Below, in pieces: positions 3,719-17,214 of a stretch of 17,214 nucleotides of DNA. Position numbers and translations under genes: made by a program. Source of the DNA: Planctomycetota bacterium (GTDB lineage Bacteria; Planctomycetota; Brocadiia; Brocadiales; Brocadiaceae); assembly GCA_030837315.1 (NCBI GenBank), contig JAUPKS010000083.1, positions 1 to 17,214 on the forward strand, written 5' to 3'. Below the pieces are notes generated by a model. The model was not told the DNA's origin. It saw only the letters and a program-made list of their open reading frames with translations, and ran no database searches. How positions within the stretch are numbered: the stretch's first letter is position 1; each line of letters begins with the position of its first letter.

Positions 3719-5416
3719 CTATCGTATATAGGCTTCAGTGACATATCGGCGCATCATGCGATGGGTATTAAAATAATAGGCAACTTTGCCAATAGAATTT
3801 TTCATGATCTTTATCCATTGGCCTCTGTCCTTGTAATACATCGGGATAATAATGTTTTCCAGTTTGTTATATAAATCCTCGGCATCTGTAGTATCATTAA
3901 CGCTTATTAGTGAGGATTCTAGTGGTTTAGGGCCAATAGACCATCCGGTTATTCCCTCCATGTGCCCCTCGATCCACCACCCATCCAAGATACTAAAATT
4001 AACAATACCATTGTGTGCTGCTTTCATGCCACTGGTACCCGATGCCTCCCGCGGTCGCAATGGCGTGTTGAGCCAAATATCTACTCCTGAAACTAATCGT
4101 AAGGCCATTTCCATATTATAATTTTTTAAAAATACGACTTTGATTTTATCGTTAAATATTTTTGTAAAATCAACGATTCTTTTTATGATTTCTTTCCCCG
4201 GGATATCTTTTGGATGTGCCTTTCCTGCATAAATAATCTGAAACGTCCCTTCTTCACTCATTTTTAAAAACCGTTCAAGGTTTGAAAATAGTAAATCTGC
4301 CCTCTTGTAAGAAGTAAATCTCCTGGCAAACCCAATGGTTAACACATCTGGATTTAGCTCTACACCAGCAATCTTTTTTACGTAATCGACTAAGTCGTAT
4401 TTAGCGCGGAGATGTGCCTCCCACAACTCTCCATCTGGAATAATTTCAGAGCGAACAAATAACTCAGGTTCGTTAGCCCAGCCAGGGATATATTTATCGT
4501 ATAATTGTTTAAAACTGTCACATGTCCAAGTAAAAGAATGGACACCATTGGTAATGGCATTAATTTCATAGCCGGGAAACAAATTTTTGGATACTTCACC
4601 GTGCTTTTTGGCAACACCGTTAACATATTTACTCAGATTTAACGCAAGAAGTGTCATATTGAGATAATGTTCCCCGCCAAGCCTTTTCAATAGCTCTAAT
4701 GGAACAATCTCCCCAAGAACTCCCTTTACGAGATCATAGGAAAACCGGTCATGACCAGCCTCGATGGGGGTATGGGTTGTGAATACACACAAGCCTTTCA
4801 CCTTATCAGTATCCCATATCCATCGTTCGTCCCAAACACTTTCAACGTCTCTCTTGTACATCAAGAGCAGTTCGAGTGTCAATAGGCTGGCGTGCCCTTC
4901 GTTCATATGGTACTTTTTGATATGCAATCCAAGAGTATGAAGTATACGCACTCCGCCAATACCAAGTACGATCTCCTGCTTCAGTCGATAATGCACATCA
5001 CCGCCGTACAAAATGGCAGTGATTTCCCGATCTTCTGTTGCATTTTCCGCAACATCAGTGTCGAGATAGAACACATCCACTTCTCCGCCAGTAACGCTTT
5101 TCACCTTATAGCACCACGCCTGAATGTAAACATTGCGTCCTTCTATTTGAACCACAACCTTTTCAGGAAGGCACACCATAAACCTGGATGGATCCCAATC
5201 CACAGAATATTCAATTTGCCTTCCATCACCATCAATATCCTGGCGAAAGTAGCCCTTTTTTGATAATAGGGTAACGGCAACAAGTGGTACTTTAAGATCC
5301 GCACCTGATTTTATAGTGTCTCCTGCCAGGACACCAAGTCCACCACTATAGGTTGGAATATCGTTAGACAAACCAATTTCCATGGAAAAATAGGCAATCT
5401 TTGCTTCGTTATTCAT
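3719..5416 (-). CDS. glgP: Alpha-glucan (glycogen/maltodextrin) phosphorylase, short GT35 form (565 aa)
   Basis: N-terminal AYFSMEIGL...YSGGLGVLAGD and the PLP-lysine region REASGTSGMKAAHNG, both characteristic of the alpha-glucan phosphorylase family. Confidence 0.9.
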   Translation of the reverse strand: MNNEAKIAYFSMEIGLSNDIPTYSGGLGVLAGDTIKSGADLKVPLVAVTLLSKKGYFRQDIDGDGRQIEYSVDWDPSRFMVCLPEKVVVQIEGRNVYIQAWCYKVKSVTGGEVDVFYLDTDVAENATEDREITAILYGGDVHYRLKQEIVLGIGGVRILHTLGLHIKKYHMNEGHASLLTLELLLMYKRDVESVWDERWIWDTDKVKGLCVFTTHTPIEAGHDRFSYDLVKGVLGEIVPLELLKRLGGEHYLNMTLLALNLSKYVNGVAKKHGEVSKNLFPGYEINAITNGVHSFTWTCDSFKQLYDKYIPGWANEPELFVRSEIIPDGELWEAHLRAKYDLVDYVKKIAGVELNPDVLTIGFARRFTSYKRADLLFSNLERFLKMSEEGTFQIIYAGKAHPKDIPGKEIIKRIVDFTKIFNDKIKVVFLKNYNMEMALRLVSGVDIWLNTPLRPREASGTSGMKAAHNGIVNFSILDGWWIEGHMEGITGWSIGPKPLESSLISVNDTTDAEDLYNKLENIIIPMYYKDRGQWIKIMKNSIGKVAYYFNTHRMMRRYVTEAYIR

Positions 5417-5490
5417 TGGTAATTTATAGATTATTCGTGGTGTATTGATTAAATTCGGTTTTCCTAAAACTCCAAAACGTACACTTATAT

Positions 5491-6924
5491 TTACATATGT
5501 ATGGGTCTATCAACCACCGCATGGGCAGCCTCCAGAATAGCCTCAGAAAGAGTAGGGTGAGGAAAAATAGTATTAAGCAATTCGTGAGCCGTTCCTTCCA
5601 AAATAGTAGCAAGCGACATACCCCACATTAATTCACCTACGTTAGGCCCAATAGCGTGCACTCCCAGTATCTCCCCATATTTATCATCCGTAACAATCTT
5701 TATAAATCCATCTTCATATTCACCATCAATAATTGCCTTACTATTTGCAATAAGGGGAAATTTTCCTACCCGTGTTTTGTAATTTCTTTTTTCCGCCTCC
5801 TCCTGAGTAAGTCCCATACTACCTACCTGCGGAAGGCAATACGTTACTCCAGGTATGTTCTGGTAATTTATTGGGGTGGTCTCTTTGCCGGCAATATGAG
5901 AAACGGCAAGCAGACCTTCATTCGATGCCTTATGAGCAAGGAGGGGAGGGCCTGTAATATCACCAATGGCAAAAAGCCCTGCTTTGTCAGTTTCCATAAC
6001 CTCATTGGTTTGAAGATATTTTCCTTTGAAACTTAGTGATAATTTTTCAATTCCAATGTCAGATAACGCAGGCTTTCTGCTTAAGGCGAGAAGTAAATGA
6101 TCGGCTTCTATAAATTCTTTATTTCCGTTTGCGATAGGGGATTGAGGTGCATTATTTTTTCTTTTTATCTCCACACGAACGCCATTATCTATTATGACCT
6201 TTTCTAAAGAGGTGTTTGTCTGGATATCGATACCTCTTTTGTTAAATATTTTACGCAAAGTGGCACTAATTTCTTTATCCTCTGCGGGAAGGACATCCTC
6301 CAAGAGTTCAATAATGGTTACCTTCGTTCCCAAGACATTAAAGAGGTGCGCGAATTCCGTTCCAACAGCACCGCCGCCCGCTATAATAATGGATTTTGGG
6401 ATTTCTTCCCACACTAATATATCGTCACTGGTAAGCACATATTTCCCATCATGAGGAATACTATCGGGAATGAGGGGAACGGAACCCGTAGCCAATATAA
6501 CATTTTTTGCAGTTATTTTGCCAACGTCCGTTCCATTTTTTTTTATTACGACACCCCCCGATGATGTGAGTTCTCCTTCACCTAAAAAAAGTTCTACACC
6601 ATTTTTCTTCAGAAGAAATTGTGTTCCTTGAAATAATCGATCAACTACAGCCTCTTTCCGTCTATGAAACTGGGGATAATTAATACTTACTTTATCAACA
6701 ACAATTCCAAATTCTCTTGCCCTTAGGAACCTCATGTAAAGATCTGATGAATGGAGGAGTACCTTCGTTGGGATACAACCCCAATGCAAACATGTACCGC
6801 CAACCTTGCCCTTTTCAATAAGAGCAGTCCTCATTCCTGACTGGGCGGCTTTTATTGCTGCAACATAACCGCCTGGCCCACCACCAATGATTATAAGATC
6901 AAAGGCAGAGATTCTCTCAGGCAA
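5491..6924 (-). CDS. lpdA: Dihydrolipoyl dehydrogenase (E3 component)
   Basis: FAD fold DLIIIGGGPGGYVAA, redox disulfide GGTCLHWGCIPTK, NAD fold IIAGGGAVGTEF, C-terminal HPHPTLSEA. The only possible start is the TTG at 6924 because the preceding codon is a stop. GGAGG sits 5 nt upstream. Confidence 0.92.
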   Translation of the reverse strand: MPERISAFDLIIIGGGPGGYVAAIKAAQSGMRTALIEKGKVGGTCLHWGCIPTKVLLHSSDLYMRFLRAREFGIVVDKVSINYPQFHRRKEAVVDRLFQGTQFLLKKNGVELFLGEGELTSSGGVVIKKNGTDVGKITAKNVILATGSVPLIPDSIPHDGKYVLTSDDILVWEEIPKSIIIAGGGAVGTEFAHLFNVLGTKVTIIELLEDVLPAEDKEISATLRKIFNKRGIDIQTNTSLEKVIIDNGVRVEIKRKNNAPQSPIANGNKEFIEADHLLLALSRKPALSDIGIEKLSLSFKGKYLQTNEVMETDKAGLFAIGDITGPPLLAHKASNEGLLAVSHIAGKETTPINYQNIPGVTYCLPQVGSMGLTQEEAEKRNYKTRVGKFPLIANSKAIIDGEYEDGFIKIVTDDKYGEILGVHAIGPNVGELMWGMSLATILEGTAHELLNTIFPHPTLSEAILEAAHAVVDRPIHM

Positions 6925-7053
6925 TTATCCCTCCTTTTTCCATGTAAACAGGATAACAAATATAAGTGCAATGGCAATGACCATAATTGCCTTTGGGCTA
7001 ATATCAGGGATAATTGATTTTTCCATAGAAAGGGATAACAATTTGCCTATCAT
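6925..7053 (-). CDS. Small (42 aa) single-pass membrane peptide, MIGKLLSLSMEKSIIPDISPKAIMVIAIALIFVILFTWKKEG, translationally coupled to lpdA
   Basis: Absent from the ORF track. The ATG at 7053 is preceded by AAGGAGGTG (10-nt spacer). It has one hydrophobic segment (AIMVIAIALIFVILF). Its TAA stop (6925-6927) abuts the lpdA TTG start, and its last codons (AAG GAG GGA) form the lpdA SD. Confidence 0.5.
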   Translation of the reverse strand: MIGKLLSLSMEKSIIPDISPKAIMVIAIALIFVILFTWKKEG

Positions 7054-7158
7054 ACTATTTTCACCTCCTTTAGAAATAAAAAATTTACTTACAAAGATCA
7101 ACTACCTAAACGATATCTATCACAACAAGATTTCCACCACACATGAAATTTACAATAT

Positions 7159-7196
7159 AAAGGCACATCAGAATCTATATATTTTGATGTGCCTTT
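7159..7196 (-). terminator. Hairpin terminator candidate closing the six-gene lipid operon
   Basis: A 12-bp perfect stem, AAAGGCACATCA (7159-7170) with TGATGTGCCTTT (7185-7196), and a 14-nt loop. It begins 36 nt downstream of the radical SAM stop. The minus-strand tail is UUUAUAUUGUAAAUUU, U-rich but not a clean U-run. Confidence 0.5.
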
Positions 7197-7232
7197 AAGG
7201 TATCTGTTATCAGGATATATAATTTATTTGCG

Positions 7233-8693
7233 CTATGTAGTGACCGTTTCCATAAGGGGTTTTGAAACAGTTACTGCACTTGATTTATACCAGTCGTTGT
7301 AATAATCACCTGAATCATACAACTCTTTTAAATTCTGTAAGACTTGTTCGAACACTTGTTTCCAATCAGAACCTACCCTGAATGCAAACATTGAATTTCT
7401 CGGATTTTTCGTTGTCTTAATAGAATTTCTGAAACGAGTCCTTAGGTTATCACTTGCGTAAATATGATCATAGATATATTGCATACCTTCAATAAAGTCT
7501 TCCAATGTCATATCTACAAAACGATGAACCACATGTGCCGTATCATAGTATTGCCAATCTTCCGGGTAATTTTTCCTGAATATCCTCTTTTCTGAATCTA
7601 ATCTCGCATAAAGTTGTGTCTTGGGGAATGGGCAGTTAATGCCAAAGGTCAGAATATCAATATTATTCTCCAATATAAAATCGGTCATTCTCTTAAAGGA
7701 ATCTTTGTCATCCCCATCTGCCCCAAACACCACTGACCCCCAAACAACTAAGCCAGCATTATGAATCTTTTGAATACAATCAAAATAACTATCGGTGCCC
7801 AACTTCAGGTTTACCTGCTTATTCATCTTCTTTAAAACAGTTTCGTTGGTAGATTCGATGCCGACAAGCATACCAAAATTGCCACTTTTGGCCATATAAT
7901 CCAGAGTTTCCGGATCCTGAGAAATATTCAACGCTGTGAATCCCAGCCAGTCTTTATGAATCCCACGCTCCACCATTCCCTTGAAAAGATCCCGCGCCCG
8001 CTCGTTTGACTTCTTACCATGGCCATAGAAGTTATCCTCTGCTAACATTAAACCCGTATAATCAGTTGCCGCCATCTCATCGAGCACATCTTCATAAGGT
8101 CTTTCCCTGAATTTCCTCCCTTGGAATGTGGGTACGCTACAGAAATCACAATAATTCGGACATCCCTTGGTTGTAACGATGGAAGAAAATTTATAATTAT
8201 ATTTTTTCTTCATAAGTTCCCGATTGGGATATACCTTTTTCATCAGGCTGAGGGGGGGTAATCCACCCTGGTAGACCTTTTTTAGTTTTCCTTCTTCAAA
8301 ATCTTTTATGACCTGTGGCCATACTTCTTCTGCTTCACCTACAAAAACAGAGTCAACGAAATTTGCAGCTTCTTCAGGCACTACGGATGCATGTATTCCA
8401 CCCATGATTACGGTCATACCCTTTTCCCTGCATGCAGTAGCAATCTTATATGCCCTGGGAGATTGGTAGGTAACAGCGGTAATACATACAAGGTCAACGG
8501 GCTTAAAGGTAATTTCTCCACTATCATCCATTGCTAATTCGAGATTCTCATCGATCACGTCAAATTCCCAATCGCCCGGCGTAAGGGCAGCAACATAAGC
8601 AAGATTCAATGGCATTTGGACGATTACCGTTATACTCTCTTCACCATGCCTGCCAGGCTTATGTGGATTAATCAACATCATTTTCCTTTTCAT
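7233..8693 (-). CDS. B12-binding-domain (class B) radical SAM enzyme, 486 aa
   Basis: The N-terminal roughly 130 aa show a Rossmann-like cobalamin-binding-domain pattern (VDLVCITAVTYQSPRAYKIA...VIMGGIHAS). Radical SAM cluster motif C178-x3-C182-x2-C185 (GCPNYCDFCS). GGAGG lies 10 nt upstream of the ATG, embedded in the last codons of the upstream gene. Confidence 0.85.
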   Translation of the reverse strand: MKRKMMLINPHKPGRHGEESITVIVQMPLNLAYVAALTPGDWEFDVIDENLELAMDDSGEITFKPVDLVCITAVTYQSPRAYKIATACREKGMTVIMGGIHASVVPEEAANFVDSVFVGEAEEVWPQVIKDFEEGKLKKVYQGGLPPLSLMKKVYPNRELMKKKYNYKFSSIVTTKGCPNYCDFCSVPTFQGRKFRERPYEDVLDEMAATDYTGLMLAEDNFYGHGKKSNERARDLFKGMVERGIHKDWLGFTALNISQDPETLDYMAKSGNFGMLVGIESTNETVLKKMNKQVNLKLGTDSYFDCIQKIHNAGLVVWGSVVFGADGDDKDSFKRMTDFILENNIDILTFGINCPFPKTQLYARLDSEKRIFRKNYPEDWQYYDTAHVVHRFVDMTLEDFIEGMQYIYDHIYASDNLRTRFRNSIKTTKNPRNSMFAFRVGSDWKQVFEQVLQNLKELYDSGDYYNDWYKSSAVTVSKPLMETVTT

Positions 8694-8700
8694 AAGTTGT

Positions 8701-10155
8701 TTACCTCCAATTCTCCATAATTAAATTAGCAACACCCCAACCAGAAGAGACTACAGCACAAACTCCAGGGCCTGGTCTTGTCCAATGACCGGTCAAATAC
8801 AGATTGTCAATTGGTGTCTTGGGTGAAAGCCTATTCTCCCATATTTGATCCGCAGTGACCGCCCAACCGTAGGCTGCCCCATTTGTGTTAGACGTATAAC
8901 GCTCCAATGTTTTTGAAGTAGCCGCATCTTTTACTTCAATATGCTTTTTTATGTCAGGAACGTATTCTTCTAATCGATTTATTGTCCTCTGCGTCATACA
9001 TTCTTTAAAAGATTTCCAACACTCATCATCGCTATATTTCCCTTCCTTTGTATAAGCAACAACAGAAATTATTTGTTTATTTGCTGGCGCAAGGGTAGGG
9101 AATATCGTTGTTGGAACCGATACGTACATCCACTCATCTTCGATGGAACTCATATCTGTAGCCGTATGATAAAATCCTCTTTTTAATTTGCTTAAATCTA
9201 TACCTTCACTTACACCCAAGTACAAAAGGAAAAAGGAACAACTTTCCTTCATCTCTTCAAGTTTTTGAAGGAATGGCAAAGGTAGTTTTCCCTGTAGCAA
9301 TTCAAAAAAAGTCCTATACGCATCAATATTTGAGACAATCAATTTTGATGGTATTTCATTGCCGTCTTCTACTTTTACGCCAATAGCGATTTTACCATCA
9401 TATAAGATTTGCTTTACCGCCGATTTTAGCATAATATGCCCGCCAAAATCAATAAATTTCTTAAAAATGGCGTTAGTAAACTCTTGAGTACCACCGGCAG
9501 GGAAAAAGGCGCCGTCTTTGAGATAATTGATCATCATTTGGCACATGCCAATAGCAGAAGCTTGAGCAGGGGGGAGCCCTATGTAACCCCACTGACCGGA
9601 AAGTATCATCTTGAGCTCCTCATTTTTAAAAAAGGCATTCAGCATCTCGCCATACGTCTGATCCTTATATCTATCTATAATTTGGCTTTTCTCATTGTTA
9701 AATGTAGCACGATAAAGCTTTATAAAATTCCGGAAGAAATCCTTTATTTTATCTCTTTCCAGAGGATAACGCTCCTGCAACCGGACGATGTATTCGTCCA
9801 AATCTGCTGGAATTTCAATGCTAAAATGAGGGAAGATCAGATGATCCATTGGGTCAAGAGGATAAAAATCCATTTCTATTCCTAATGTCTTAAAGCAGCG
9901 ACCGACAATACCCCATTTCCCGCAGCCCCCAATATGATGAACTGCCGCATCAAAGTTAAAGCCTTTTCTCTTAAAAGAAGTGCAATAACCACCGGGAATA
10001 GAGTGTTGTTCAAGAATGAGTACCTTTTTTCCCCCTTTGGCAAGAAAAGCAGCACAGACCAAACCTGCTATGCCTGCGCCAATTACAATGACATCATAAT
10101 AAGGATACAAACTATCCTTATTTGTGGATTGAATACATCGGTTGGAAGGCATCAT
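8701..10155 (-). CDS. FAD-dependent oxidoreductase of the phytoene desaturase (CrtI)-like family, 484 aa
   Basis: N-terminal dinucleotide fold YDVIVIGAGIAGLVCAAFLAKGGKKVLILEQ...PGG and a C-terminal LYLTGHWTRPGPGV...SG motif, typical of CrtI-like amine-oxidase-fold enzymes. The start lies 3 nt after the upstream stop. Confidence 0.8.
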   Translation of the reverse strand: MMPSNRCIQSTNKDSLYPYYDVIVIGAGIAGLVCAAFLAKGGKKVLILEQHSIPGGYCTSFKRKGFNFDAAVHHIGGCGKWGIVGRCFKTLGIEMDFYPLDPMDHLIFPHFSIEIPADLDEYIVRLQERYPLERDKIKDFFRNFIKLYRATFNNEKSQIIDRYKDQTYGEMLNAFFKNEELKMILSGQWGYIGLPPAQASAIGMCQMMINYLKDGAFFPAGGTQEFTNAIFKKFIDFGGHIMLKSAVKQILYDGKIAIGVKVEDGNEIPSKLIVSNIDAYRTFFELLQGKLPLPFLQKLEEMKESCSFFLLYLGVSEGIDLSKLKRGFYHTATDMSSIEDEWMYVSVPTTIFPTLAPANKQIISVVAYTKEGKYSDDECWKSFKECMTQRTINRLEEYVPDIKKHIEVKDAATSKTLERYTSNTNGAAYGWAVTADQIWENRLSPKTPIDNLYLTGHWTRPGPGVCAVVSSGWGVANLIMENWR

Positions 10156-10158
10156 GAA

Positions 10159-11403
10159 TTACTGTTTGTATTTTGAAATGATGAGGGATGAATTGTTTCC
10201 CAACCGTGAGAAGGTATTGATAAGGACGTTTTTGACAGGTAAGACCCTTGCGACATTGGCAACATAATCTAAATCACACTCAGGATCGCGCTCCTTATAA
10301 TTGATTGTGGGGGGAATTGTGTTGGTGTTTATGGACATCGAAGCAGCAATTGTTTGCATTGCACCTGAAGCATCATAGCATTCACCGGTCATGGATTTCA
10401 TGGCGGTTATGGGAATAAGATTCGCTCTCATACCAAAAACCTCTTTGATAACTCTGGTTTCCATCGCGTCACCGTAGACACCAGAATAAGCATTGGCAGA
10501 TATATAAGAAATATCATTTAGTGTAAGATTGGCATCCTTGATTGCACTCATGATAGCTCTTTTGCTACCGTCTATCTGATAACCCTTGCTCGTGGCCATT
10601 ATTGGATCAAATGCGGTCCCGTAACCCTTGATCTCTGCATAAATATGGGCATTTCTCTTAAGCGCATCTTCCAAGGTTTCGAGGATGACTAACGCCGATG
10701 CTTCACCAATAACCATCCCATTGCGCCTTTTATCAAACGGTGCGCAAATTTCGAAAGTTCCATCTTTACTTCCTGATAATATTTTGGAATTATGTGCGCC
10801 CCAAAATATGTCATGAGTTAATCCATGCACCCCCCCAGCAACAACAGCCTTTACACGACTCATTCTAAGAAAATCAGAGGCATAGATAATGGCATCAACA
10901 CTACTGGTAACACCATTTGATATAGTAGTACATAGTCCTGTAGCCTTGCAAAAAATAGAGGCGCGACTCGCGGGTGCATTCAGCACGGTATTAGGAAAAT
11001 CCATAGGATTTACATAATTAGGCCCTTCACGTAATGACTGAAAATCAAAGGAACTGATACTATCGATGCTTCCATACGTAGAACCTATAACTATACCTAA
11101 TTCATCTCCACTGTAAGTGTTATTTTCCAAGTTAGCATCTTTGATGGCCAAGACCGTTGCAGAAGATGCGAGGAGGGAGGTTCTATCGATATGGCGGATT
11201 CCTTTTTGTCCAAGATATATCTTGGCGTCGAAATCAGGAATCTCACCGGCATGTTTACTGGTATATTTACTTACATCGAATAAGGTAATAGGTTTAATAC
11301 CCGATACGCCATTGGTTAAATTATTCCAAAAAGTCTCTTTGTTGCCTCCAACGGGCGAGATAACCGAAACACCTGTAATAACAATCCGCGTTTTTTCCAT
11401 CAT
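10159..11403 (-). CDS. Ketosynthase paralog lacking the catalytic triad (KS-beta / chain-length-factor-like), 414 aa
   Basis: Thiolase-fold KS throughout (RIVITGVSVISPVG..., PFDKRRNGMVIGE, C-terminal NTFSRLGNNSSL). Aligned with the neighbouring intact KS, Cys163 becomes Val165 (codon 10909-10911), His296 becomes Asn304 and His333 becomes Glu341. The GAGGT SD favours the second ATG (11400) as the start. Confidence 0.8.
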   Translation of the reverse strand: MMEKTRIVITGVSVISPVGGNKETFWNNLTNGVSGIKPITLFDVSKYTSKHAGEIPDFDAKIYLGQKGIRHIDRTSLLASSATVLAIKDANLENNTYSGDELGIVIGSTYGSIDSISSFDFQSLREGPNYVNPMDFPNTVLNAPASRASIFCKATGLCTTISNGVTSSVDAIIYASDFLRMSRVKAVVAGGVHGLTHDIFWGAHNSKILSGSKDGTFEICAPFDKRRNGMVIGEASALVILETLEDALKRNAHIYAEIKGYGTAFDPIMATSKGYQIDGSKRAIMSAIKDANLTLNDISYISANAYSGVYGDAMETRVIKEVFGMRANLIPITAMKSMTGECYDASGAMQTIAASMSINTNTIPPTINYKERDPECDLDYVANVARVLPVKNVLINTFSRLGNNSSLIISKYKQ

Positions 11404-11455
11404 AAACCTCGTCTCTAAGATACTCGTTCACCGACAATTGCCGAACCATGAAGCT

Positions 11456-12676
11456 TTAATGTGTGAACTTTTTTACAACCAGACAGCTGTTGTTACCACC
11501 AAAGGCATGGGCATTATTCAATGCAATAGTTACCTGCTGTTTTCTCATAACATTTGGCACATAATCCAGATCACATTCCGGATCCGGGGTTTCATAATTA
11601 ATCGTGGGAGGGATAATATCGTTTTGAACTACTAAGGCGCAGGTGATAGCTTCTATGGCACTAGCAGCACCCATAGTATGGCCAATCATTGATTTTATTG
11701 AACTAATTGCAAGATGTTCTGGTTTATTCCCAAACACCTTTTTAATAGAGATCGTTTCTGCTTTGTCATTAGCAGGGGTGCCTGTTCCATGAGCGCTGAT
11801 GTACTGGACGTCTTCTGGTTTTAAATTTGCGCTTTTCAAGGCTTTTTTCATCGCGGATACAACACCTTCTCCGTCGGGATGGGGGATGGTAATATGGTAA
11901 GCATCACAACTAAGACCATAGCCAATAATTTCAGCATAGATATTTGCATTTCTCTTCACTGCGTGATCAAGTGATTCTAAAAGAAGCATGCCTGCACCCT
12001 CACCCACCATCATGCCTTTCCTGTTTTTGTCAAAAGGTTGACATATCTCAGGGGCAATGGCACCGAGCCTGGCAAAACCCGTATAAGCAACTTTTGAAAA
12101 AGGATCAGAACCTCCAGCCATCATCATGTCCACCCGTCCGAACTTAATTAAATCATACGCATATCCGATTGCATAATTACCTGCTGCACAGGCGGTAGGA
12201 ATAATAGTGTTGGGGCCTTTAAAACCAAACTCAATGGCAACATTAGCCGGAATATTATTGCACGGATGCATTAAAAACAAATCAGGGTCTACCTTATCTT
12301 CACCCTCTTTATACCGAATATAATTAACTTTTTCCAGAATTTGTATTTCACCTGCAGTCGTCCCTACAGAAACTCCAATCCTCTCTAAATCAATGTTATT
12401 CAGAATAAGTCCGGCATCATTTAAGGCAAGCTTTGTGGCTGCAATGGCAAATTGTGAAGCTTTGCCAATCTTTTTAAGAACGGCGTTTTTTATATAATCC
12501 GAATAATTAAAGTTTTTTACCTCACATCCCTTATGAACCTTATATCCGGAAGTATCAATGCATGATACTTCATCTACGCCAGATATCCCAGCAATAAGGG
12601 CATTCCAGAATACATCCTTCCCCGACCCAATAGGAGTGATCATTCCCACTCCTGTTATAACTACACGTTTATTCAT
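11456..12676 (-). CDS. fabF: Beta-ketoacyl-ACP synthase II-type ketosynthase with intact Cys-His-His triad, 406 aa
   Basis: Active-site PTACAAG (Cys163), [15 protein letters not shown] (His296), [15 protein letters not shown] (His333) and C-terminal [14 protein letters not shown], the canonical FabF/KAS II motifs. Confidence 0.88.
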
Positions 12677-12689
12677 AGGTATTATTGTA

Positions 12690-13145
12690 TCAACTAGACA
12701 CTAATGTGCTTTTATCTGCAATTCCAAAAGTCAAAGTTGCCTTAGCAACTGCTTTTTCATCAACCTTTACCGATGCCTGAACAATTGCTCCCTTCGATAC
12801 GATCTTTTCAACGCTTATCTCCACAAAGAGTTGATCGCCGGGGAAAACTGGTTTTGTAAACCGCGCATTATTAACTGATGCCAGCAGAAAAACTTCATCT
12901 CTATCTTTTTTAGTGGGGAGACTTTTTTTGAACAGGATGATCGAAGCTTGTGCCATCGCCTCAATAATGAGTACCCCAGGCATAATGGCAAAATCGGGGA
13001 AATGTCCAACAAAGACTGGCTCGTTGCCAGAGACATTTTTTACGCAGACAATTCTTTTTCCCTCTTCAAACTCAATAACTTTATCTATAAATAAAAAAGG
13101 ATATTTTTGAGGAAGAAGAGATCTGATTTCCTCGAAAAACATCAT
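12690..13145 (-). CDS. fabZ: 3-hydroxyacyl-ACP dehydratase
   Basis: 151 aa. [13 protein letters not shown] followed by [21 protein letters not shown], the canonical FabZ His/Glu motif. Confidence 0.9.
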
Positions 13146-13217
13146 CTTATATAGTCCGTCATCTCATTAATCACAAACGTATTACCTTTGAAATTGTCAC
13201 ACTTTCTATTTAACACA

Positions 13218-13487
13218 TTACGATGAAAATTTTCCGCTTTCCGATAGAACAGCCTTTGTTAAACCGATTGTAGCGCTCAATGATGTAATATCAACGAGCT
13301 TTTCTTCGGGAATTTGCACTTTAAATTTCTTTTCAATAAGTGCAAGAATTTCAAGGGCTAAAAGAGAATCTATTTCAAGATCTTTAAAGAAATTCGCATC
13401 TCTTTTATCCCAAATTTCCTTTTCATCTAATTCTGTAACCTCAGCAACTATGGCTGTTACACCTTTTTCAATTTCTTCAGTGTTCAA
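13218..13487 (-). CDS. Dedicated acyl carrier protein (89 aa from the TTG at 13487; the longest ORF extends to the TTG at 13502)
   Basis: Phosphopantetheine attachment motif LEIDSLLALEIL and an acidic helical protein of ACP size. GAGGAGGGG lies inside the longest ORF, 6 nt upstream of the TTG at 13487, so the shorter start is preferred. Confidence 0.85.
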   Translation of the reverse strand: MNTEEIEKGVTAIVAEVTELDEKEIWDKRDANFFKDLEIDSLLALEILALIEKKFKVQIPEEKLVDITSLSATIGLTKAVLSESGKFSS

Positions 13488-13554
13488 AATTCCCCTCCTC
13501 AAAAACAGACAGCGCTAACCATTAATCTGCTATGTCAACTATACTTAGCGGGAC

Positions 13555-13583
13555 ATGGTAGCAGACATAGGTTATATTGTCAA
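13555..13583 (-). promoter_or_regulatory. Candidate sigma70-type promoter TTGACA-17 nt-TACCAT for the ACP-led operon
   Basis: Minus strand: TTGACA at 13583-13578 and TACCAT at 13560-13555, about 55-70 nt upstream of the ACP start. Motif match only. Confidence 0.3.
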
Positions 13584-13770
13584 TAATTTTCTTTAACCAT
13601 TATAGCCAATGTAAATCCTCATTTTCATAAATCCAAGAAAATTTGTTCCCGAAAACAATTTTCGACAACTATTTACTACGTCCGATAATATATATTATGT
13701 TGCAATGAAAAAAAAGAAGTTCCTGAAAATCCTTTCTCGTGTTTAAATTTTATCATAGCATAACGATCCT

Positions 13771-14382
13771 CTATTTCGTCCTTCTCGATGCCTTTTTTTC
13801 TTCTCGTAATTCTTGTCGTCTATATCGAGACAATTCTTTTAATGCCTTATATAGCTGCATTTCTAACATCGTTTCGTATTTAGATAATTCCACAATTCTG
13901 TTTTTGTTTTCAATTATTTTTAAAGCCTTTAATTGTGATAGTTCTTTATCAGTCCTTTTTCGCGTCCGGAAAAATCCCTGATCGTATTCCTGAATGCAAG
14001 ACCTATCATATTCCATAACCAGGTTTTCAATTTTCAAACATCGCTTCAATCGCCAGACACTTGAAACAATGTGATCCACGATAAGCAATTCAATCTCATC
14101 CGATGGTTTTAGCTCACCAGCAAGCCTATTTCTGATTCCATCAAGATCAGACTGTCTTTCCCCATCTAGTAATATTTCATCGCTAAAGATATATTGTTTT
14201 CCAGCATTTTCCAGAGATTTCATAGACTCTGATGGTACCTTAGTTTCTGTATTCTCTGTCTTTGCGAAGCTTACAATCCCGGCTGATTCAATGATGGTGT
14301 CCATTATCTTGTCTACTTTATCTTTGGCAGAAGACTCTCTGTTCTTTCCTCGTAAAACATCTTCCTTTAAGATCGTTGACAT
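13771..14382 (-). CDS. Hypothetical protein, 203 aa, highly charged and predicted helical
   Basis: Strong SD (AAGGAGG, 4-nt spacer) before the ATG at 14382. It contains ELLIVDHIVSSVWRLKRCLKIEN and a C-terminal LSKYETMLEMQLYKALKELSRYRRQ followed by a lysine/arginine-rich tail. No catalytic motif recognised. Confidence 0.7.
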   Translation of the reverse strand: MSTILKEDVLRGKNRESSAKDKVDKIMDTIIESAGIVSFAKTENTETKVPSESMKSLENAGKQYIFSDEILLDGERQSDLDGIRNRLAGELKPSDEIELLIVDHIVSSVWRLKRCLKIENLVMEYDRSCIQEYDQGFFRTRKRTDKELSQLKALKIIENKNRIVELSKYETMLEMQLYKALKELSRYRRQELREEKKASRRTK

Positions 14383-14643
14383 TGATCCTCCTTTCTAATC
14401 CCTAAAATACTTGGTTATATGTGCAGAATAATATCTCATAATCGTTTAGACTATTCAATAAATATTTTAGATGTTTATTAAGTTATTGCTGCATAACCGC
14501 TCTTGGTCATTCCTGAAGCAGCTCAATATATATTAATATTTTGTGTGTAAATATAAATAACGCTTGAGATATGAGTAATATCGAATAAAATTAATTTACA
14601 GGTATTTAGCTCCAGTTTTTTAAAATTTTCGTAAACACGTGAA

Positions 14644-15279
14644 ATGAAAATTAACGAAATATTTAAGAGCATTCAAGGGGAGACGTCTTACGCAGGTTTG
14701 CCTTGCATATTTATACGCATAGCAGGTTGTAATTTACGCTGCAGTTATTGCGATACGATGTATGCCTATGACGATGGGGCGGAAATGACGGTCAATTTAA
14801 TTCTTGAAATTACCGATAACTTCAAATGCAAGTTTGTTTGTGTAACGGGCGGTGAACCTCTGTTGAATAAAGACACGCCTTTATTAATCAGCAAGTTGCT
14901 AGAAAGAAATTATATTGTATTAGTCGAAACAAATGGTAGCTACGATATACGTAAGATACCACAAAAAGCGATTAAAATTATGGATATCAAGTGTCCGGAC
15001 AGTAACATGAGTCATTTGATGGCTTGGGAGAATATTAACTATTTGACAAAATCAGACGAAATAAAATTTGTTTTAAATTCACGAAAAGATTATGACTGGG
15101 CAAAAATGTTAATACATAAATATCAGTTGCCCGATGTTGCCACGGTATTGCTAGGGGCAGTTTTTGGTGCAATCTCCCCAAGGTCGGTTGTCCAATGGAT
15201 TTTGGAGGATAATCTCGATGTGCGCTTTCAACTACAACTCCACAAATATATCTGGGAACCACAAACAAGGGGTGTTTAA
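14644..15279 (+). CDS. queE: 7-carboxy-7-deazaguanine synthase (radical SAM)
   Basis: N-terminal EIFKSIQGETSYAGLPCIFIRIAGCNLRCSYCDT (QGEG-like motif plus CxxxCxxC), followed by GGEPL. The length of 211 aa is typical of QueE. Confidence 0.9.
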   Translation: MKINEIFKSIQGETSYAGLPCIFIRIAGCNLRCSYCDTMYAYDDGAEMTVNLILEITDNFKCKFVCVTGGEPLLNKDTPLLISKLLERNYIVLVETNGSYDIRKIPQKAIKIMDIKCPDSNMSHLMAWENINYLTKSDEIKFVLNSRKDYDWAKMLIHKYQLPDVATVLLGAVFGAISPRSVVQWILEDNLDVRFQLQLHKYIWEPQTRGV

Positions 15280-15283
15280 TAAC

Positions 15284-15955
15284 GTGAAGGATGTTGCTAT
15301 TGTACTCGTTAGTGGTGGTATGGACAGTTGCGTAACCGTTGGTATTGCTAACGCACAATACCAGCTTGCGATGTTACACGTTAATTACGGACAGCGTACA
15401 GAAACACGAGAACTTAAAGCATTCCATGATATTGCAGCATACTACAAGGTTCCTAACGATAGGACACTCATATCTCATGTCGATTATTTAAGTAAAATTG
15501 GTGGATCAAGTTTAACGGACCAGCGCATGGATGTTCAAGATGCGCAGTTCCATAGCAAAGAAATTCCCACCTCGTATGTACCTTTCAGAAACACACTCTT
15601 CTTAACAATTGCCGTTGCGTGGGGAGAAGTTATCGGGGCAAAAAAAATATTTATCGGCGCAGTAGAACAAGACAGCCCTGGTTATCCCGATTGCAAGCCG
15701 ATCTATTATGAAATTTTCAATAAATTAATCAATGTGGGAACAAGGCCTACAACCCACATCAAGGTAGAAACACCGCTTATACGAAAGACTAAATCAGAAA
15801 TCGTAAAAATAGGTATTTCTATGAAAGTTCCATTCCATCTAAGTTGGTCTTGTTACAAGAATACTGACAAAGCATGCGGAATATGTCATAGCTGTTTTCT
15901 GCGGTTAAAAGCCTTTAAGGAATCCGATATTAATGACCCGATTGCTTATGTTTGA
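15284..15955 (+). CDS. queC: 7-cyano-7-deazaguanine (preQ0) synthase
   Basis: PP-loop VLVSGGMDSCV directly after the GTG at 15284, and the C-terminal zinc-cysteine cluster SCYKNTDKACGICHSCFLR. The track ORF start at 15164 overlaps queE by 116 nt. The GTG at 15284 is in frame, lies 4 nt after the queE stop, and gives a typical 223-aa QueC. Confidence 0.9.
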   Translation: MKDVAIVLVSGGMDSCVTVGIANAQYQLAMLHVNYGQRTETRELKAFHDIAAYYKVPNDRTLISHVDYLSKIGGSSLTDQRMDVQDAQFHSKEIPTSYVPFRNTLFLTIAVAWGEVIGAKKIFIGAVEQDSPGYPDCKPIYYEIFNKLINVGTRPTTHIKVETPLIRKTKSEIVKIGISMKVPFHLSWSCYKNTDKACGICHSCFLRLKAFKESDINDPIAYV

Positions 15956-16002
15956 TGGAAACTTACGATCTTGAGATATTTCATAAATTTTAAATTTTAT
16001 AA

Positions 16003-16030
16003 TTGCAAATGTGATTTCACTTTGTATAAT
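16003..16030 (+). promoter_or_regulatory. Candidate sigma70-type promoter TTGCAA-16 nt-TATAAT
   Basis: TTGCAA at 16003-16008 and a consensus TATAAT at 16025-16030 with TG immediately upstream, about 175 nt upstream of the beta-barrel candidate ORF. Motif match only. Confidence 0.3.
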
Positions 16031-16206
16031 TCAGCCTACTATAGGCATATTAAAATATTCGTTTGCTTATACAATACATGCGACTTAGATGGTTTTTTAG
16101 GTTTAGAATTTGCTAATTTGCTCTCTATAATAAAAATGCACTAAAGCTATTGCAGTTAAACGTTCTGGAGTATGACAAGAAATTACAAACCTATTATAGG
16201 ATTACA

Positions 16207-17214
16207 GTGAACAATCTGGTAAGATATTTAAAGACAATATCAACCATATGCCTTTTGGTAGTTGTTTTTACTGCCACCCTTTCAAATGCTTATGCCTTCG
16301 ACGATGACCGCTTAGACCTCACTATTACGAAATTTTTTGATTCCCTTTCTTATAAATACAAGGGATTCGATTTAGGGGTCAAAGAGGTTTCGGTTGGAGA
16401 AACATTTGATGACAACATTAACTTTGATAAAAAGGACAAACAGGAAGACTTCATAACATATGCGGGAATTGTACTAGGTGCACAATATGTAGGCAAAACC
16501 AGGACATTTGAACTAACTGGTAAAATAACTGATCAGATTTTTGCCAAACAGGCTGATCAAAACAATGTCACACAATTTATAAACTTAAATTTTAAAAATG
16601 AGTTTTCAAAACGTGACCGCATCAGCCTAACGAATGTCTTTACACACTTCGAAGCACCAGAATCTTCAGATTCAGATCCTGAGGGAGGTTATTTCTCACA
16701 ACAGTTTGGAAGAACAGGAGGACGATTCGAATTTTTCCGAAACCAGTTTAACACCACCTATTCAAATGATATTTCCAAACAACTTTCTTTCATTGTAAAC
16801 TACGCTAATGAAATAAACGTTTTTTCAGGGACAGACAGGGATAATTCGATTCTACATAAACCGGGTTTGGGCCTGAGTTACATATTTAGTCCCACCGCCA
16901 CTATTTTTTCCTTTTCATACACCTTCACCAGTATACAATTTGAAGATGATACCGATGCCAGAATAAACACAATTGGTCCTGGCATAAAACAATACATTAC
17001 AAAAAAACTTTATTTTAACGGAAGTACGGGAATAGATTTTATCGATTCTTTTGACGATAAAAACCTCACCAAGCCATTCGTTCAGGCATCGTTGACATAT
17101 ATACTAGAAGAAAAAACACGTGCAAGCATTTCGTTTAACAAAAAATATGAAACAAACCCTTACTTTGATGATATCTTTAATAGCTGGCGTACTTCCGTCT
17201 CTCTGACAAGACAA
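16207..17214 (+). CDS. Secreted protein with signal peptide, probable outer-membrane beta-barrel (N-terminal 336 codons; continues beyond the window)
   Basis: Absent from the ORF track because there is no stop inside the window. I translated 16207-17214 codon by codon and found no stop. GTG start with AGGA 5 nt upstream. The signal peptide VNNLVRYLKTISTICLLVVVFTATLSNAYA is followed by FDDD. There are many amphipathic alternating strands rich in aromatic residues (LSFIVNYANEINVF, GLGLSYIFSPTATIFSFSYTFTSIQF, ASLTYILEEKTRASISF). Confidence 0.65.
   Translation, partial: MNNLVRYLKTISTICLLVVVFTATLSNAYAFDDDRLDLTITKFFDSLSYKYKGFDLGVKEVSVGETFDDNINFDKKDKQEDFITYAGIVLGAQYVGKTRTFELTGKITDQIFAKQADQNNVTQFINLNFKNEFSKRDRISLTNVFTHFEAPESSDSDPEGGYFSQQFGRTGGRFEFFRNQFNTTYSNDISKQLSFIVNYANEINVFSGTDRDNSILHKPGLGLSYIFSPTATIFSFSYTFTSIQFEDDTDARINTIGPGIKQYITKKLYFNGSTGIDFIDSFDDKNLTKPFVQASLTYILEEKTRASISFNKKYETNPYFDDIFNSWRTSVSLTRQ

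Follow-up and report, generated by a model that had tools for sequence, protein, structure and literature searches.

How anammox bacteria assemble linearly fused cyclobutanes is a well-known question that lipid biochemistry has yet to solve. The leading but unproven candidate for the synthesis of these ladderane lipids is Cluster I, an operon that has been in the literature since 2009 (PMC2649909), that is highly expressed in anammox bacteria and that, according to the Granatino 2026 preprint, is by general consensus central to ladderane synthesis. Two of its products, a flavoenzyme (PDH) and a radical SAM enzyme with an N-terminal B12-binding-type domain (rSAM), are the enzymes most often proposed for the unusual chemistry, and the published hypothesis has desaturation come first and radical C-C bond formation second (Rattray 2009, PMC2649909; Javidpour 2016, PMC4790861; Dietl 2023, PMC10139942). 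Anammox bacteria have so far yielded no detectable polyunsaturated intermediates. When kuste3603-3608 of Kuenenia stuttgartiensis were expressed anaerobically in E. coli, fatty acids were unchanged (PMC4790861), and according to Dietl 2023 (PMC10139942) heterologous expression failed to yield the rSAM enzyme. We treat the unchanged fatty acids as weak counter-evidence, because the 2016 paper makes no mention of cobalamin, vitamins or B12 and because of this statement on the rSAM enzyme; the unmentioned cobalamin supply is a possible reason for the negative heterologous test.

We analyzed a stretch of DNA of 17,214 nucleotides (the window) that holds six minus-strand genes in the order ACP, FabZ, KS, dead KS, PDH and rSAM (Table 1). 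This is the gene order of Cluster I on one strand, and the same arrangement is present at the corresponding locus of the K. stuttgartiensis genome (L086). Sequence comparison identifies the operon, amxACP, amxFabZ, amxFabF2, amxFabFmut, PDH and rSAM, as the ortholog of kuste3603-3608, with PDH and rSAM matching kuste3607 and kuste3608 at its 3' end. The rSAM protein is 94-97% identical to Brocadia MAG proteins and 86% identical to the K. stuttgartiensis protein, it falls within a monophyletic anammox clade, and the source of the window is an anammox bacterium of Brocadia-like type. In Kuenenia loci, identity to the window is 88% for the active KS (KS1), 80% for the dead KS (KS2) and 71% for PDH; as in the window, the gap between the PDH and rSAM genes is tight there (4 nt), and at the K. 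stuttgartiensis locus an LPD-like gene likewise lies downstream. The window belongs to another genus-level lineage and has slightly different intergenic distances, and no functional difference from kuste3603-3608 is visible in the sequence.

The gene identities and ACP/KS context that an earlier note had assigned to this DNA proved correct. The reaction order it suggested, acyl desaturation and then radical C-C bond formation or C-methylation, turned out to be the long-published proposal for ladderane biosynthesis, which the note had not recognized, and still stands as a proposal; the desaturase/rSAM pair is already known and is no new object. Its remark that this sequence of reactions is undemonstrated for fatty acyl substrates is still accurate (PMC13459092).

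Table 1. Genes, junctions and candidate transcription signals of the operon, with positions in nucleotides of the window
Feature	Position	Strand	Description
Promoter-like site, upstream of the ACP gene	13555..13583	-	TTGACA, 17-nt spacer, TACCAT with TG
Acyl carrier protein (amxACP ortholog)	13218..13502	-	PP-binding domain, 52 bits
3-Hydroxyacyl-ACP dehydratase (amxFabZ ortholog)	12690..13145	-	FabA domain, 100 bits; NCBIfam FabZ, 157.9 bits (cutoff 113)
Ketosynthase KS1 (amxFabF2 ortholog)	11456..12676	-	Intact Cys163/His296/His333 triad; predicted to be active
Ketosynthase homolog KS2 (amxFabFmut, chain-length-factor-like)	10159..11403	-	Triad replaced by Val/Asn/Glu; predicted to be catalytically dead
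KS2/PDH junction	10150..10161	-	TAA (10161-10159, after AAA CAG), TTC (10158-10156), ATG ATG (10155-10150); 3-nt gap
CrtI-family FAD flavoenzyme, PDH (kuste3607 ortholog)	8701..10155	-	484 aa; Pfam Amino_oxidase, full length, and NAD_binding_8
PDH/rSAM junction	8691..8708	-	GGAGG (8708-8704), TAA (8703-8701), 7-nt spacer ACAACTT (8700-8694), ATG (8693-8691)
Radical SAM enzyme with N-terminal B12-binding-type domain, rSAM (kuste3608 ortholog)	7233..8693	-	486 aa; Pfam B12-binding, Radical_SAM, DUF4070
Stem-loop with a U-rich tract behind it, 3' of the rSAM stop	7158..7197	-	Detected by fold energy

The tightest and best-conserved junctions of the operon are those between dead KS and PDH and between PDH and rSAM, and these three genes are its most tightly linked core. 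Across genomes, the median gap is 7 nt between PDH and rSAM (20 nt or less in 60/63 junctions) and 3 nt between KS2 and PDH (20 nt or less in 54 of 61 loci); junctions elsewhere in the same operon are looser, with medians of 73.5 nt (ACP to FabZ) and 48 nt (KS1 to KS2). These counts add quantitative support for the three genes as the core. In the window itself we found exactly what the earlier note had described, a PDH gene beginning 3 nt after the KS stop and an rSAM gene beginning 7 nt after the PDH stop, with its GGAGG Shine-Dalgarno (SD) sequence inside the last PDH codons (GAG AAT TGG AGG TAA). A lone gap of 3 or 7 nt tells little, because short gaps are frequent within operons; a GGAGG-like SD within the 3' end of PDH was seen repeatedly across Brocadiaceae and Scalindua. 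Having both a very short gap and an SD inside the upstream reading frame, the pair has the layout of translationally coupled genes, which suggests that PDH and rSAM may be coupled in translation and produced in a fixed ratio.

The four upstream genes are FAS-like. For the ACP gene either of two TTG codons may be the start, the one at 13502 or the one at 13487, which GAGGAGG precedes; mean identity of the protein is 91% in loci of Brocadiaceae and 79% in those of Scalindua. KS2 carries the substitutions of Kuste3606 at 6/6 positions checked (Val/Asn/Tyr/Gly/Lys/Glu, including Tyr300, Gly302 and Lys328; Table 2 of PMC2649909). For orthologs of the KS pair a KS/CLF heterodimer has been demonstrated (bioRxiv 10.64898/2026.05.19.726425), and in published enzyme data amxFabZ and the KS/CLF pair favor C6-C8 substrates. 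These data favor short C6-C8 intermediates over the desaturation of a finished long chain.

PDH resembles CrtI-type desaturases in its FAD-binding Rossmann N-terminus (GxGxxG), its full-length amine-oxidase fold (Amino_oxidase over residues 29-479; NAD_binding_8, 57 bits) and its alignment to the CrtI structure 4dgk over residues 23-482 (E = 1.3e-23), and it is also similar over its full length to the gamma-carotene desaturase 4rep. It is unlike CrtI in that it scores 168.3 bits against NCBIfam TIGR02734 crtI_fam, under the cutoff of 238, and in that its ortholog kuste3607 did not replace CrtI in lycopene synthesis, yielding no lycopene from phytoene in the E. coli pLyc system (PMC4790861). 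Its top NCBIfam match is carotenoid isomerase, at 175.1 bits (cutoff 586.9) marginally above crtI_fam, and such family scores do not tell desaturase, isomerase and saturase chemistry apart. The score under the crtI_fam cutoff and the equally good match to carotenoid isomerase are caveats to the reading of PDH in the earlier note. PDH is the fastest-evolving protein of the cluster, and its AF2 model was too poor for active-site inspection. In JGI annotation several PDH orthologs are named 'prolycopene isomerase'. No isoprenoid genes lie near the flavoenzyme gene, which belongs to a fatty-acid-type operon.

In rSAM, the PF02310 B12-binding domain scores 39.9 bits (cutoff 32.1) and the Radical_SAM domain 52.1 bits; the CxxxCxxC motif reads CPNYCDFC (residues 178-185, nt 8162-8139), and 47 homologs all retain Cys178, Cys182 and Cys185. 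The domain match suggests that the enzyme uses cobalamin. Like the class I B12-rSAMs OxsB, TsrM, TokK, QCMT/MgmA and CysS, and like BchE, rSAM has an N-terminal Rossmann-type B12-binding domain followed by a CxxxCxxC core. Its AF2 model (pLDDT 91.5) matches the folds of AprD4, QCMT/MgmA, TsrM, TokK, OxsB and CysS, with Foldseek E values of 1e-13 to 1e-17 and query-normalized TM-scores of 0.59-0.65 against class I enzymes at a sequence identity of only 12-19%. The best structural match, AprD4, is a diol dehydratase, which a 2026 review enters in its B12-rSAM network as an 'unrelated' enzyme. B12-rSAMs offer precedents for ring chemistry (OxsB, BchE), for a carrier-bound substrate (CysS) and for non-methylating catalysis (OxsB), and we count the modeled likeness to class I enzymes, including OxsB and CysS, as pointing toward radical C-C chemistry. 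The protein passes the cutoff of no curated family. Against the NCBIfam model TIGR04072 rSAM_ladder_B12 it scores 88.1 bits, under the curated cutoff of 360, as do its paralogs and the non-anammox orthologs under the same cutoff; against the BchE family model it reaches 68 bits (cutoff 481).

Linkage of the pair to the upstream genes is strong. PDH lies directly upstream of rSAM in 64/73 loci with enough upstream flank, and KS2, KS1, FabZ and ACP were all present in each of the 54 PDH/rSAM pairs with at least 6 kb upstream. The earlier note had held that a pair commonly found without ACP/KS neighbors would speak against its reading; no such pair occurred among these 54. All anammox lineages sampled have Cluster I, among them the deep-branching Hypogeohydatales/JP1, Tripitaka, Subterrananammoxibius and Anammoxibacter. 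The full cluster of six genes, again with one intact and one dead KS, was also found in MAGs labeled Acidobacteriota, delta-proteobacterium, Spirochaetales and non-Brocadiia Planctomycetota, all of them uncultured. There the GC content is 58-70% and that of the cluster equals that of its flanks, so that on composition these operons are native to their hosts; the anammox clade has its nearest sisters among the rSAMs of these operons. A related rSAM has been named from a Myxococcota MAG.

These syntenic clusters in high-GC MAGs that are not labeled anammox contradict the published view that only ladderane producers have it, a challenge that our analysis adds to the literature; the assignment of the window to Cluster I is not affected. 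Their presence in MAGs not known as ladderane makers weakens the argument from exclusivity. Related clusters had been called 'rare but not unique' earlier, and D. psychrophila had polyunsaturated hydrocarbons, not ladderanes (Rattray 2009, PMC2649909).

On balance we lean toward the reading that the Cluster I module, PDH and rSAM included, makes the ladderane part of anammox membrane lipids. The KS/CLF-like heterodimer, a ketoreductase acting in trans and amxFabZ would build short (~C4-C8) enoyl or polyenoyl chains on amxACP; the flavoenzyme would add or reposition C=C bonds while the chain is still ACP-bound; and rSAM would abstract a hydrogen atom, leading to new C-C bonds and cyclobutane closure. 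The product would be the ladderane part of the lipids. We infer the substrates, the order of the steps and the cyclobutane formation. rSAM would probably work while the chain is being elongated and not on the completed C20 product of elongation. Members of the rSAM family and their paralogs alike adjoin KS/dead-KS pairs, which is consistent with action during elongation, as is the preference of amxFabZ and the KS/CLF pair for C6-C8 substrates. Several points count against the ladderane reading: the undetected polyunsaturated intermediates, the unchanged fatty acids in E. coli, the low crtI_fam score of PDH and the inactivity of its ortholog on phytoene, the prevalence of methyltransferases among class B rSAMs, AprD4 as the top structural match, and the six-gene clusters outside anammox.

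Both tailoring steps could be read differently. Double bonds can arise without a desaturase, because the cluster has a dehydratase and no enoyl reductase, and PDH might then be a cis/trans isomerase (CRTISO-like), or a saturase replacing the absent enoyl reductase, working on a conjugated enoyl- or polyenoyl-ACP from KS/CLF, ketoreductase and FabZ. The slight lead of carotenoid isomerase over crtI_fam, both under their cutoffs, fits this idea, as do the JGI name and the inactivity of kuste3607 as a phytoene desaturase; we hold it to be doubtful in view of the full-length similarity to bona fide desaturases (4dgk, 4rep) and of family scores that do not separate the three chemistries. It concerns the PDH step only and is compatible with the rSAM chemistry that we favor. 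That rSAM is instead an ordinary class B C-methyltransferase, placing methyl branches on the acyl chain while the flavoenzyme prepares or finishes the site, by analogy with the methylation and flavin-reductase pairs of branched fatty acid synthesis, seems to us quite improbable. Class B rSAMs, as far as characterized, are mostly methyltransferases, the best of the weak NCBIfam matches of rSAM include HpnR, PhpK and the MCR glutamine methylase, its structural neighbors include QCMT/MgmA, TokK, TsrM and CysS, and anammox bacteria reportedly contain methyl-branched fatty acids. However, no curated methylase family claims rSAM, with every methylase model under its cutoff, the 2026 B12-rSAM network files the family under 'other or unknown transformations', and bulk fatty acid methylation needs no dedicated ACP, dehydratase and KS/CLF pair. 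rSAM is also the most conserved and slowest-evolving protein of the cluster (79% identity to Scalindua), which might, speculatively, mark a demanding core step.

A broader alternative is that the module makes a specialized lipid or polyketide-like acyl chain that is not ladderane-specific, such as a short polyene or a radical-tailored chain from a highly reducing type II PKS-like system, with the cyclobutanes made elsewhere or by additional anammox genes. Polyene-forming type II PKS-like systems are laid out in this way, with ACP, dehydratase and KS/CLF but no enoyl reductase. The ishigamide (Iga11/Iga12) and cispentacin (AmcB/E/F) systems resemble the operon in having a discrete ACP, a FabZ-like dehydratase and a KS/dead-KS heterodimer, and neither is known to have a CrtI-like or B12-rSAM partner. 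NCBIfam matches to the cispentacin proteins stay under cutoff (KS1 to AmcF, 241.6 against 325 bits; FabZ to AmcE, 106.6 against 140), whereas FabZ passes the genuine FabZ cutoff, and the likeness probably reflects general FAS/PKS homology. The 2026 preprint aligns the anammox KS pair with Iga11/Iga12, which counts for the broader alternative together with the non-anammox clusters, their sister rSAMs and the D. psychrophila precedent. Against it, no anammox lineage sampled lacks the cluster, its expression in anammox bacteria is high, no rival candidate for ladderane synthesis has so far proved convincing, and the non-anammox carriers could make related cyclized lipids; we consider it unlikely. 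Tentatively, the module may make a more widespread short acyl unit, tailored by radical chemistry, from which anammox bacteria build ladderanes, or cyclobutane lipids may exist outside anammox. If either were true, the exclusivity argument for Cluster I would fail, and a comparison of carriers would pinpoint the truly ladderane-specific genes.

The six genes are apparently transcribed together, from the promoter-like site 5' of the ACP gene to the hairpin 3' of the rSAM gene. No cobalamin riboswitch was found in the window. The promoter-like site agrees with the consensus at 10/12 positions and is a plausible, weakly supported operon promoter, the number of such sites in the region being no higher than expected from shuffles. 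A pattern scan for terminators with a loop limit of 3-8 nt did not pick up the hairpin, probably because its loop region exceeds that limit. With a minimum free energy of -20.8 kcal/mol (z = -4.4) and an equally good fold in 0/200 shuffles, it is probably the operon terminator.

By its sequence, the six-gene operon in the window is anammox Cluster I, the order ACP, FabZ, intact ketosynthase (KS1), second ketosynthase homolog (KS2, the dead KS), CrtI-like flavoenzyme (PDH) and B12-domain radical SAM enzyme (rSAM). The nearest relatives of the rSAM are in Candidatus Brocadia (94-97% identity), Kuenenia stuttgartiensis (86%), Scalindua (about 79%) and further anammox lineages, and the K. stuttgartiensis genome locus carries the identical six genes in identical order. 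That locus, kuste3603-3608, was among the ladderane candidate clusters put forward by Rattray et al. 2009 (PMC2649909) and now bears the name Cluster I; the literature describes its genes as amxACP, amxFabZ, amxFabF2, amxFabFmut, a phytoene-dehydrogenase homolog and a cobalamin-dependent radical SAM enzyme. The dead KS of the window has the Kuste3606 substitutions tabulated there (Val163, Asn298, Tyr300, Gly302, Lys328 and Glu333). The earlier note was correct in its observation, and both the cluster and its hypothesis are already known: the sequence that the note had proposed, desaturation of the acyl chain and then radical C-C bond formation, is the hypothesis under discussion in the Cluster I papers.

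Features of the window and of homologous loci (L handles), with positions in each stretch
Stretch	Feature	Position	Strand	Remark
Window	ACP	13502-13218	minus	PP-binding domain (Pfam)
Window	FabZ	13145-12690	minus	Above FabZ cutoff (NCBIfam)
Window	KS1	12676-11456	minus	FabF-like (Pfam/NCBIfam)
Window	KS2, 414 aa	11403-10159	minus	Val/Asn/Glu replacing Cys/His/His triad
Window	PDH, 484 aa	10155-8701	minus	NAD_binding_8; Amino_oxidase full length
Window	rSAM, 486 aa	8693-7233	minus	B12-binding; Radical_SAM; weak DUF4070
Window	Second FabZ-like gene, 157 aa	2411-2884	plus	fabZ model 106 bits, cutoff 155
Window	Dihydrolipoyl-dehydrogenase-like flavoprotein	5491-6924	minus	
Window	203-aa ORF	13771-14382	minus	No Pfam match
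Window	QueE and QueC	14644-15955	plus	
L067	Six-gene cluster	5282-11443		Label delta-proteobacterium, 1.8 Mb contig
L068	Six-gene cluster	5290-11383		Label delta-proteobacterium, 382 kb contig
L077	Six-gene cluster	5483-11389		Label Acidobacteriota
L079	Six-gene cluster	5399-11389		Planctomycetota (non-Brocadiia) MAG, 884-kb contig
L080	Six-gene cluster	5402-11389		Label Spirochaetales
L084	Six-gene cluster	5476-11476		Metagenome locus, Acidobacteria MAG; contiguous
L083	Six-gene cluster	4101-11437		Metagenome locus; two extra genes between dehydratase and first KS
L070	'Solo' rSAM paralog	10001-11392		
L064	PDH-free rSAM/KS/dead-KS module	7311-11225	minus	
L081	PDH-free rSAM/KS/dead-KS module	10001-14005		
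L066	PDH-free rSAM/KS/dead-KS module	5130-9062		
L067	PDH-free rSAM/KS/dead-KS modules	11458-17063		
L080	PDH-free rSAM/KS/dead-KS module	11425-14716		

Reading the sequence confirmed exactly the coordinates and details that the earlier note gave for the two junctions around the PDH gene. KS2 ends in AAA CAG TAA, followed by TTC and then ATG ATG, the PDH start; PDH ends in GAG AAT TGG AGG TAA, which places a GGAGG (8708-8704) within its final codons, and the 7-base spacer ACAACTT separates it from the rSAM ATG. Beyond the rSAM stop codon, RNA folding revealed a stable hairpin with a U-rich tail (ΔG -20.8 kcal/mol, z = -4.4), so the layout is consistent with one transcription unit. The pattern scan for promoters and terminators, which performs at chance level and missed this hairpin, gave weak evidence of a promoter-like site 5' of the ACP gene. 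No Rfam element, cobalamin riboswitch included, was detected when the window was scanned.

Scanning an alignment of the rSAM against one genome per GTDB species yielded 80 loci. Of the 73 loci whose upstream flank reaches 1.6 kb or more, 64 have PDH directly before rSAM; the other nine comprise a clade of 'solo' paralogs, a second Anammoxibacter copy and one Blastocatellia locus. The earlier note had held that frequent occurrence of the pair apart from ACP/KS neighbours would speak against its reading; KS2, KS1, FabZ and ACP were also present with every one of the 54 pairs that have 6 kb or more of upstream sequence. Within the operon, the trio of dead KS, PDH and rSAM genes is packed most tightly and is the best conserved. 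Their junctions are compatible with co-translation, and perhaps with a physical complex of the three products; the layout suggests, rather than proves, translational coupling. Among the anammox lineages compared (loci L001-L065), rSAM and ACP evolve slowest and PDH fastest.

Intergenic gaps across loci
Junction	n	Median gap (nt)	Gap of at most 20 nt
ACP>FabZ	56	73.5	9
FabZ>KS1	58	12	38
KS1>KS2	57	48	23
KS2>PDH	61	3	54
PDH>rSAM	63	7	60

Mean % identity to the window proteins
Group	ACP	FabZ	KS1	KS2	PDH	rSAM
Brocadiaceae	91	85	92	85	76	93
Scalindua-like	79	67	74	66	60	79
Non-anammox	49	49	57	40	44	59

The rSAM likely uses cobalamin, as judged from its domains and predicted fold. Its B12-binding domain scores 39.9 bits against a Pfam cutoff of 32.1, and the motif C178-x3-C182-x2-C185 shows no variation among 47 homologs. 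Based on the best PDB matches of a confident AlphaFold model (pLDDT 91.5), namely AprD4, QCMT/MgmA (9ccb), TsrM, TokK, OxsB and CysS (E 1e-13 to 4e-18; TM-score normalised to query 0.59-0.67), the predicted architecture is that of the class I B12-rSAMs of PMC12931638. That review places the 'Ladderane' enzyme with B12-rSAMs whose transformation is other or unknown, and AprD4 among 'unrelated' enzymes of the same network. Neither the rSAM nor its paralogs reached any curated NCBIfam family cutoff; we rejected assignment to 'rSAM_ladder_B12', an apt name, as the score fell far below cutoff.

Along its whole length the PDH can be aligned with CrtI (4dgk, E = 1.3e-23) and with a gamma-carotene desaturase (4rep); it scores 168 bits against a cutoff of 238 for crtI_fam and 175 bits against 587 for carotenoid isomerase (NCBIfam). 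Desaturase, isomerase and saturase chemistries are inseparable at the level of its sequence. Its AlphaFold model was poor (pLDDT 59.7) because the alignment held anammox sequences only, at 60-85% identity, and we left it out of the fold search and of active-site reasoning.

We identified the complete six-gene order in five genome loci of 58-70% GC (L067, L068, L077, L079 and L080), compared to 36-55% for anammox loci. Two metagenome loci, L084 and L083, hold the six genes as well. These clusters look orthologous to Cluster I. Their first KS has PTACAAG, SAHGTGT and SMIGHTMG motifs identical to anammox, the second KS is a dead one in which an acidic residue takes the place of the second His (GEC or DC; anammox GEC), and the rSAMs branch as the closest sisters to the monophyletic anammox clade, nearer to it than the 'solo' paralog of anammox bacteria. 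GC content is equal in cluster and flanks, which marks the clusters as native to their hosts and argues against mis-binned anammox DNA or recent transfer; the non-anammox status of the carriers is judged from MAG labels, the 58-70% GC and this equality. The profile search returned MAGs only and no cultured non-anammox carrier. Gene content also varies: L084 adds a ketoreductase and FabH, both absent from anammox Cluster I, and L067 and L083 add further rSAM and KS/dead-KS modules, enoyl-CoA hydratases and SDRs. Six-gene clusters in MAGs labelled non-anammox are at odds with published statements that restrict it to makers of ladderanes ('encountered exclusively', Dietl 2023, PMC10139942; 'unique to ladderane-producing bacteria', bioRxiv 10.64898/2026.05.19.726425); Rattray 2009 called similar clusters 'rare but not unique'. 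This occurrence of the whole cluster outside anammox bacteria is the one point that may deserve follow-up.

Several deep-branching anammox genomes (loci L069-L076) carry the second, 'solo' rSAM at 56-58% identity. It lacks FAS-like neighbours and forms its own clade, farther from Cluster I rSAMs than the non-anammox orthologs are; the paired loci are L065/L070, L060/L071, L064/L072, L059/L074 and L063/L076. We also found PDH-free modules of a B12-rSAM with an intact and a dead KS, often accompanied by enoyl-CoA hydratase, SDR and MIase genes and similar to kuste2803-2805. The rSAM family is tied more constantly to KS/dead-KS pairs than to the flavoenzyme.

This recurrent pairing suggests that the rSAM would act in step with chain elongation. 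In work on the orthologs, the pair of KS homologs assembled as a KS/CLF-like heterodimer, which decarboxylates malonyl-ACP and has a preference for C6-C8 probes (bioRxiv 10.64898/2026.05.19.726425); the literature also reports that amxFabZ prefers chains up to 6-8 carbon atoms and, from isotope labelling, that canonical synthesis fits only the linear part of the lipid. In the mechanism that we favour by a modest degree, ladderane link included, the assembly line would deliver a short enoyl- or polyenoyl-amxACP, the flavoenzyme would set unsaturation on the chain and the rSAM would form C-C bonds by radical chemistry. That the flavoenzyme is instead an isomerase or saturase is possible but doubtful; it would alter the PDH step only and is compatible with this mechanism. 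A module product not specific to ladderanes seems unlikely to us, and this reading gains strength from the non-anammox clusters. We consider it improbable that the rSAM is a plain C-methyltransferase, a reading that draws in part on methyl-branched fatty acids in anammox bacteria, for which we found no usable support in the literature.

E. coli has no de novo B12 synthesis, and in the sole test of the radical mechanism the B12-type rSAM may have been without its cofactor. There, anaerobic expression of kuste3603-3608 left E. coli fatty acids unchanged, and kuste3607 did not substitute for CrtI in lycopene synthesis (Javidpour 2016, PMC4790861). The text of that paper makes no mention of cobalamin, vitamins or B12, and according to Dietl 2023 heterologous expression did not yield the rSAM enzyme; together with the host's B12 status, these points mean that the negative result says little about the rSAM. 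According to reviews and the preprint, as of 2026 no experiment ties any Cluster I protein to ladderanes.

KS1, FabZ and ACP match the cispentacin proteins AmcF, AmcE and AmcB below NCBIfam cutoff, and we set kinship of this type aside as probably generic FAS/PKS homology. The cispentacin proteins, ring-forming and type II PKS-like, are a reminder that KS/CLF and FabZ-like enzymes can form small rings themselves.

The downstream LPD-like, GlgP, HAD and FabZ2 genes were rejected as module members since their synteny is confined to Brocadiaceae/Kuenenia and absent in Scalindua and deeper lineages. About 4.3 kb beyond the 3' end of the operon, and encoded on the other strand, is the second FabZ-like gene; Brocadiaceae and Kuenenia loci retain it in synteny at 78-95% conservation, and Scalindua loci lack it. 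The dihydrolipoyl-dehydrogenase-like gene lies directly 3' of rSAM in the same orientation with the hairpin between; the arrangement recurs in K. stuttgartiensis (L086) and Brocadiaceae, not Scalindua, and probably reflects shared ancestry rather than membership of the module. The 203-aa ORF lies upstream of the ACP gene in the same orientation and keeps its position at 45-81% identity in Brocadiaceae loci only. QueE and QueC are encoded upstream of the operon, on the plus strand. As listed, the QueC ORF (TTG at 15164) shares 116 nt with the end of QueE; its family match starts only at residue 45, so that the true start is probably later.
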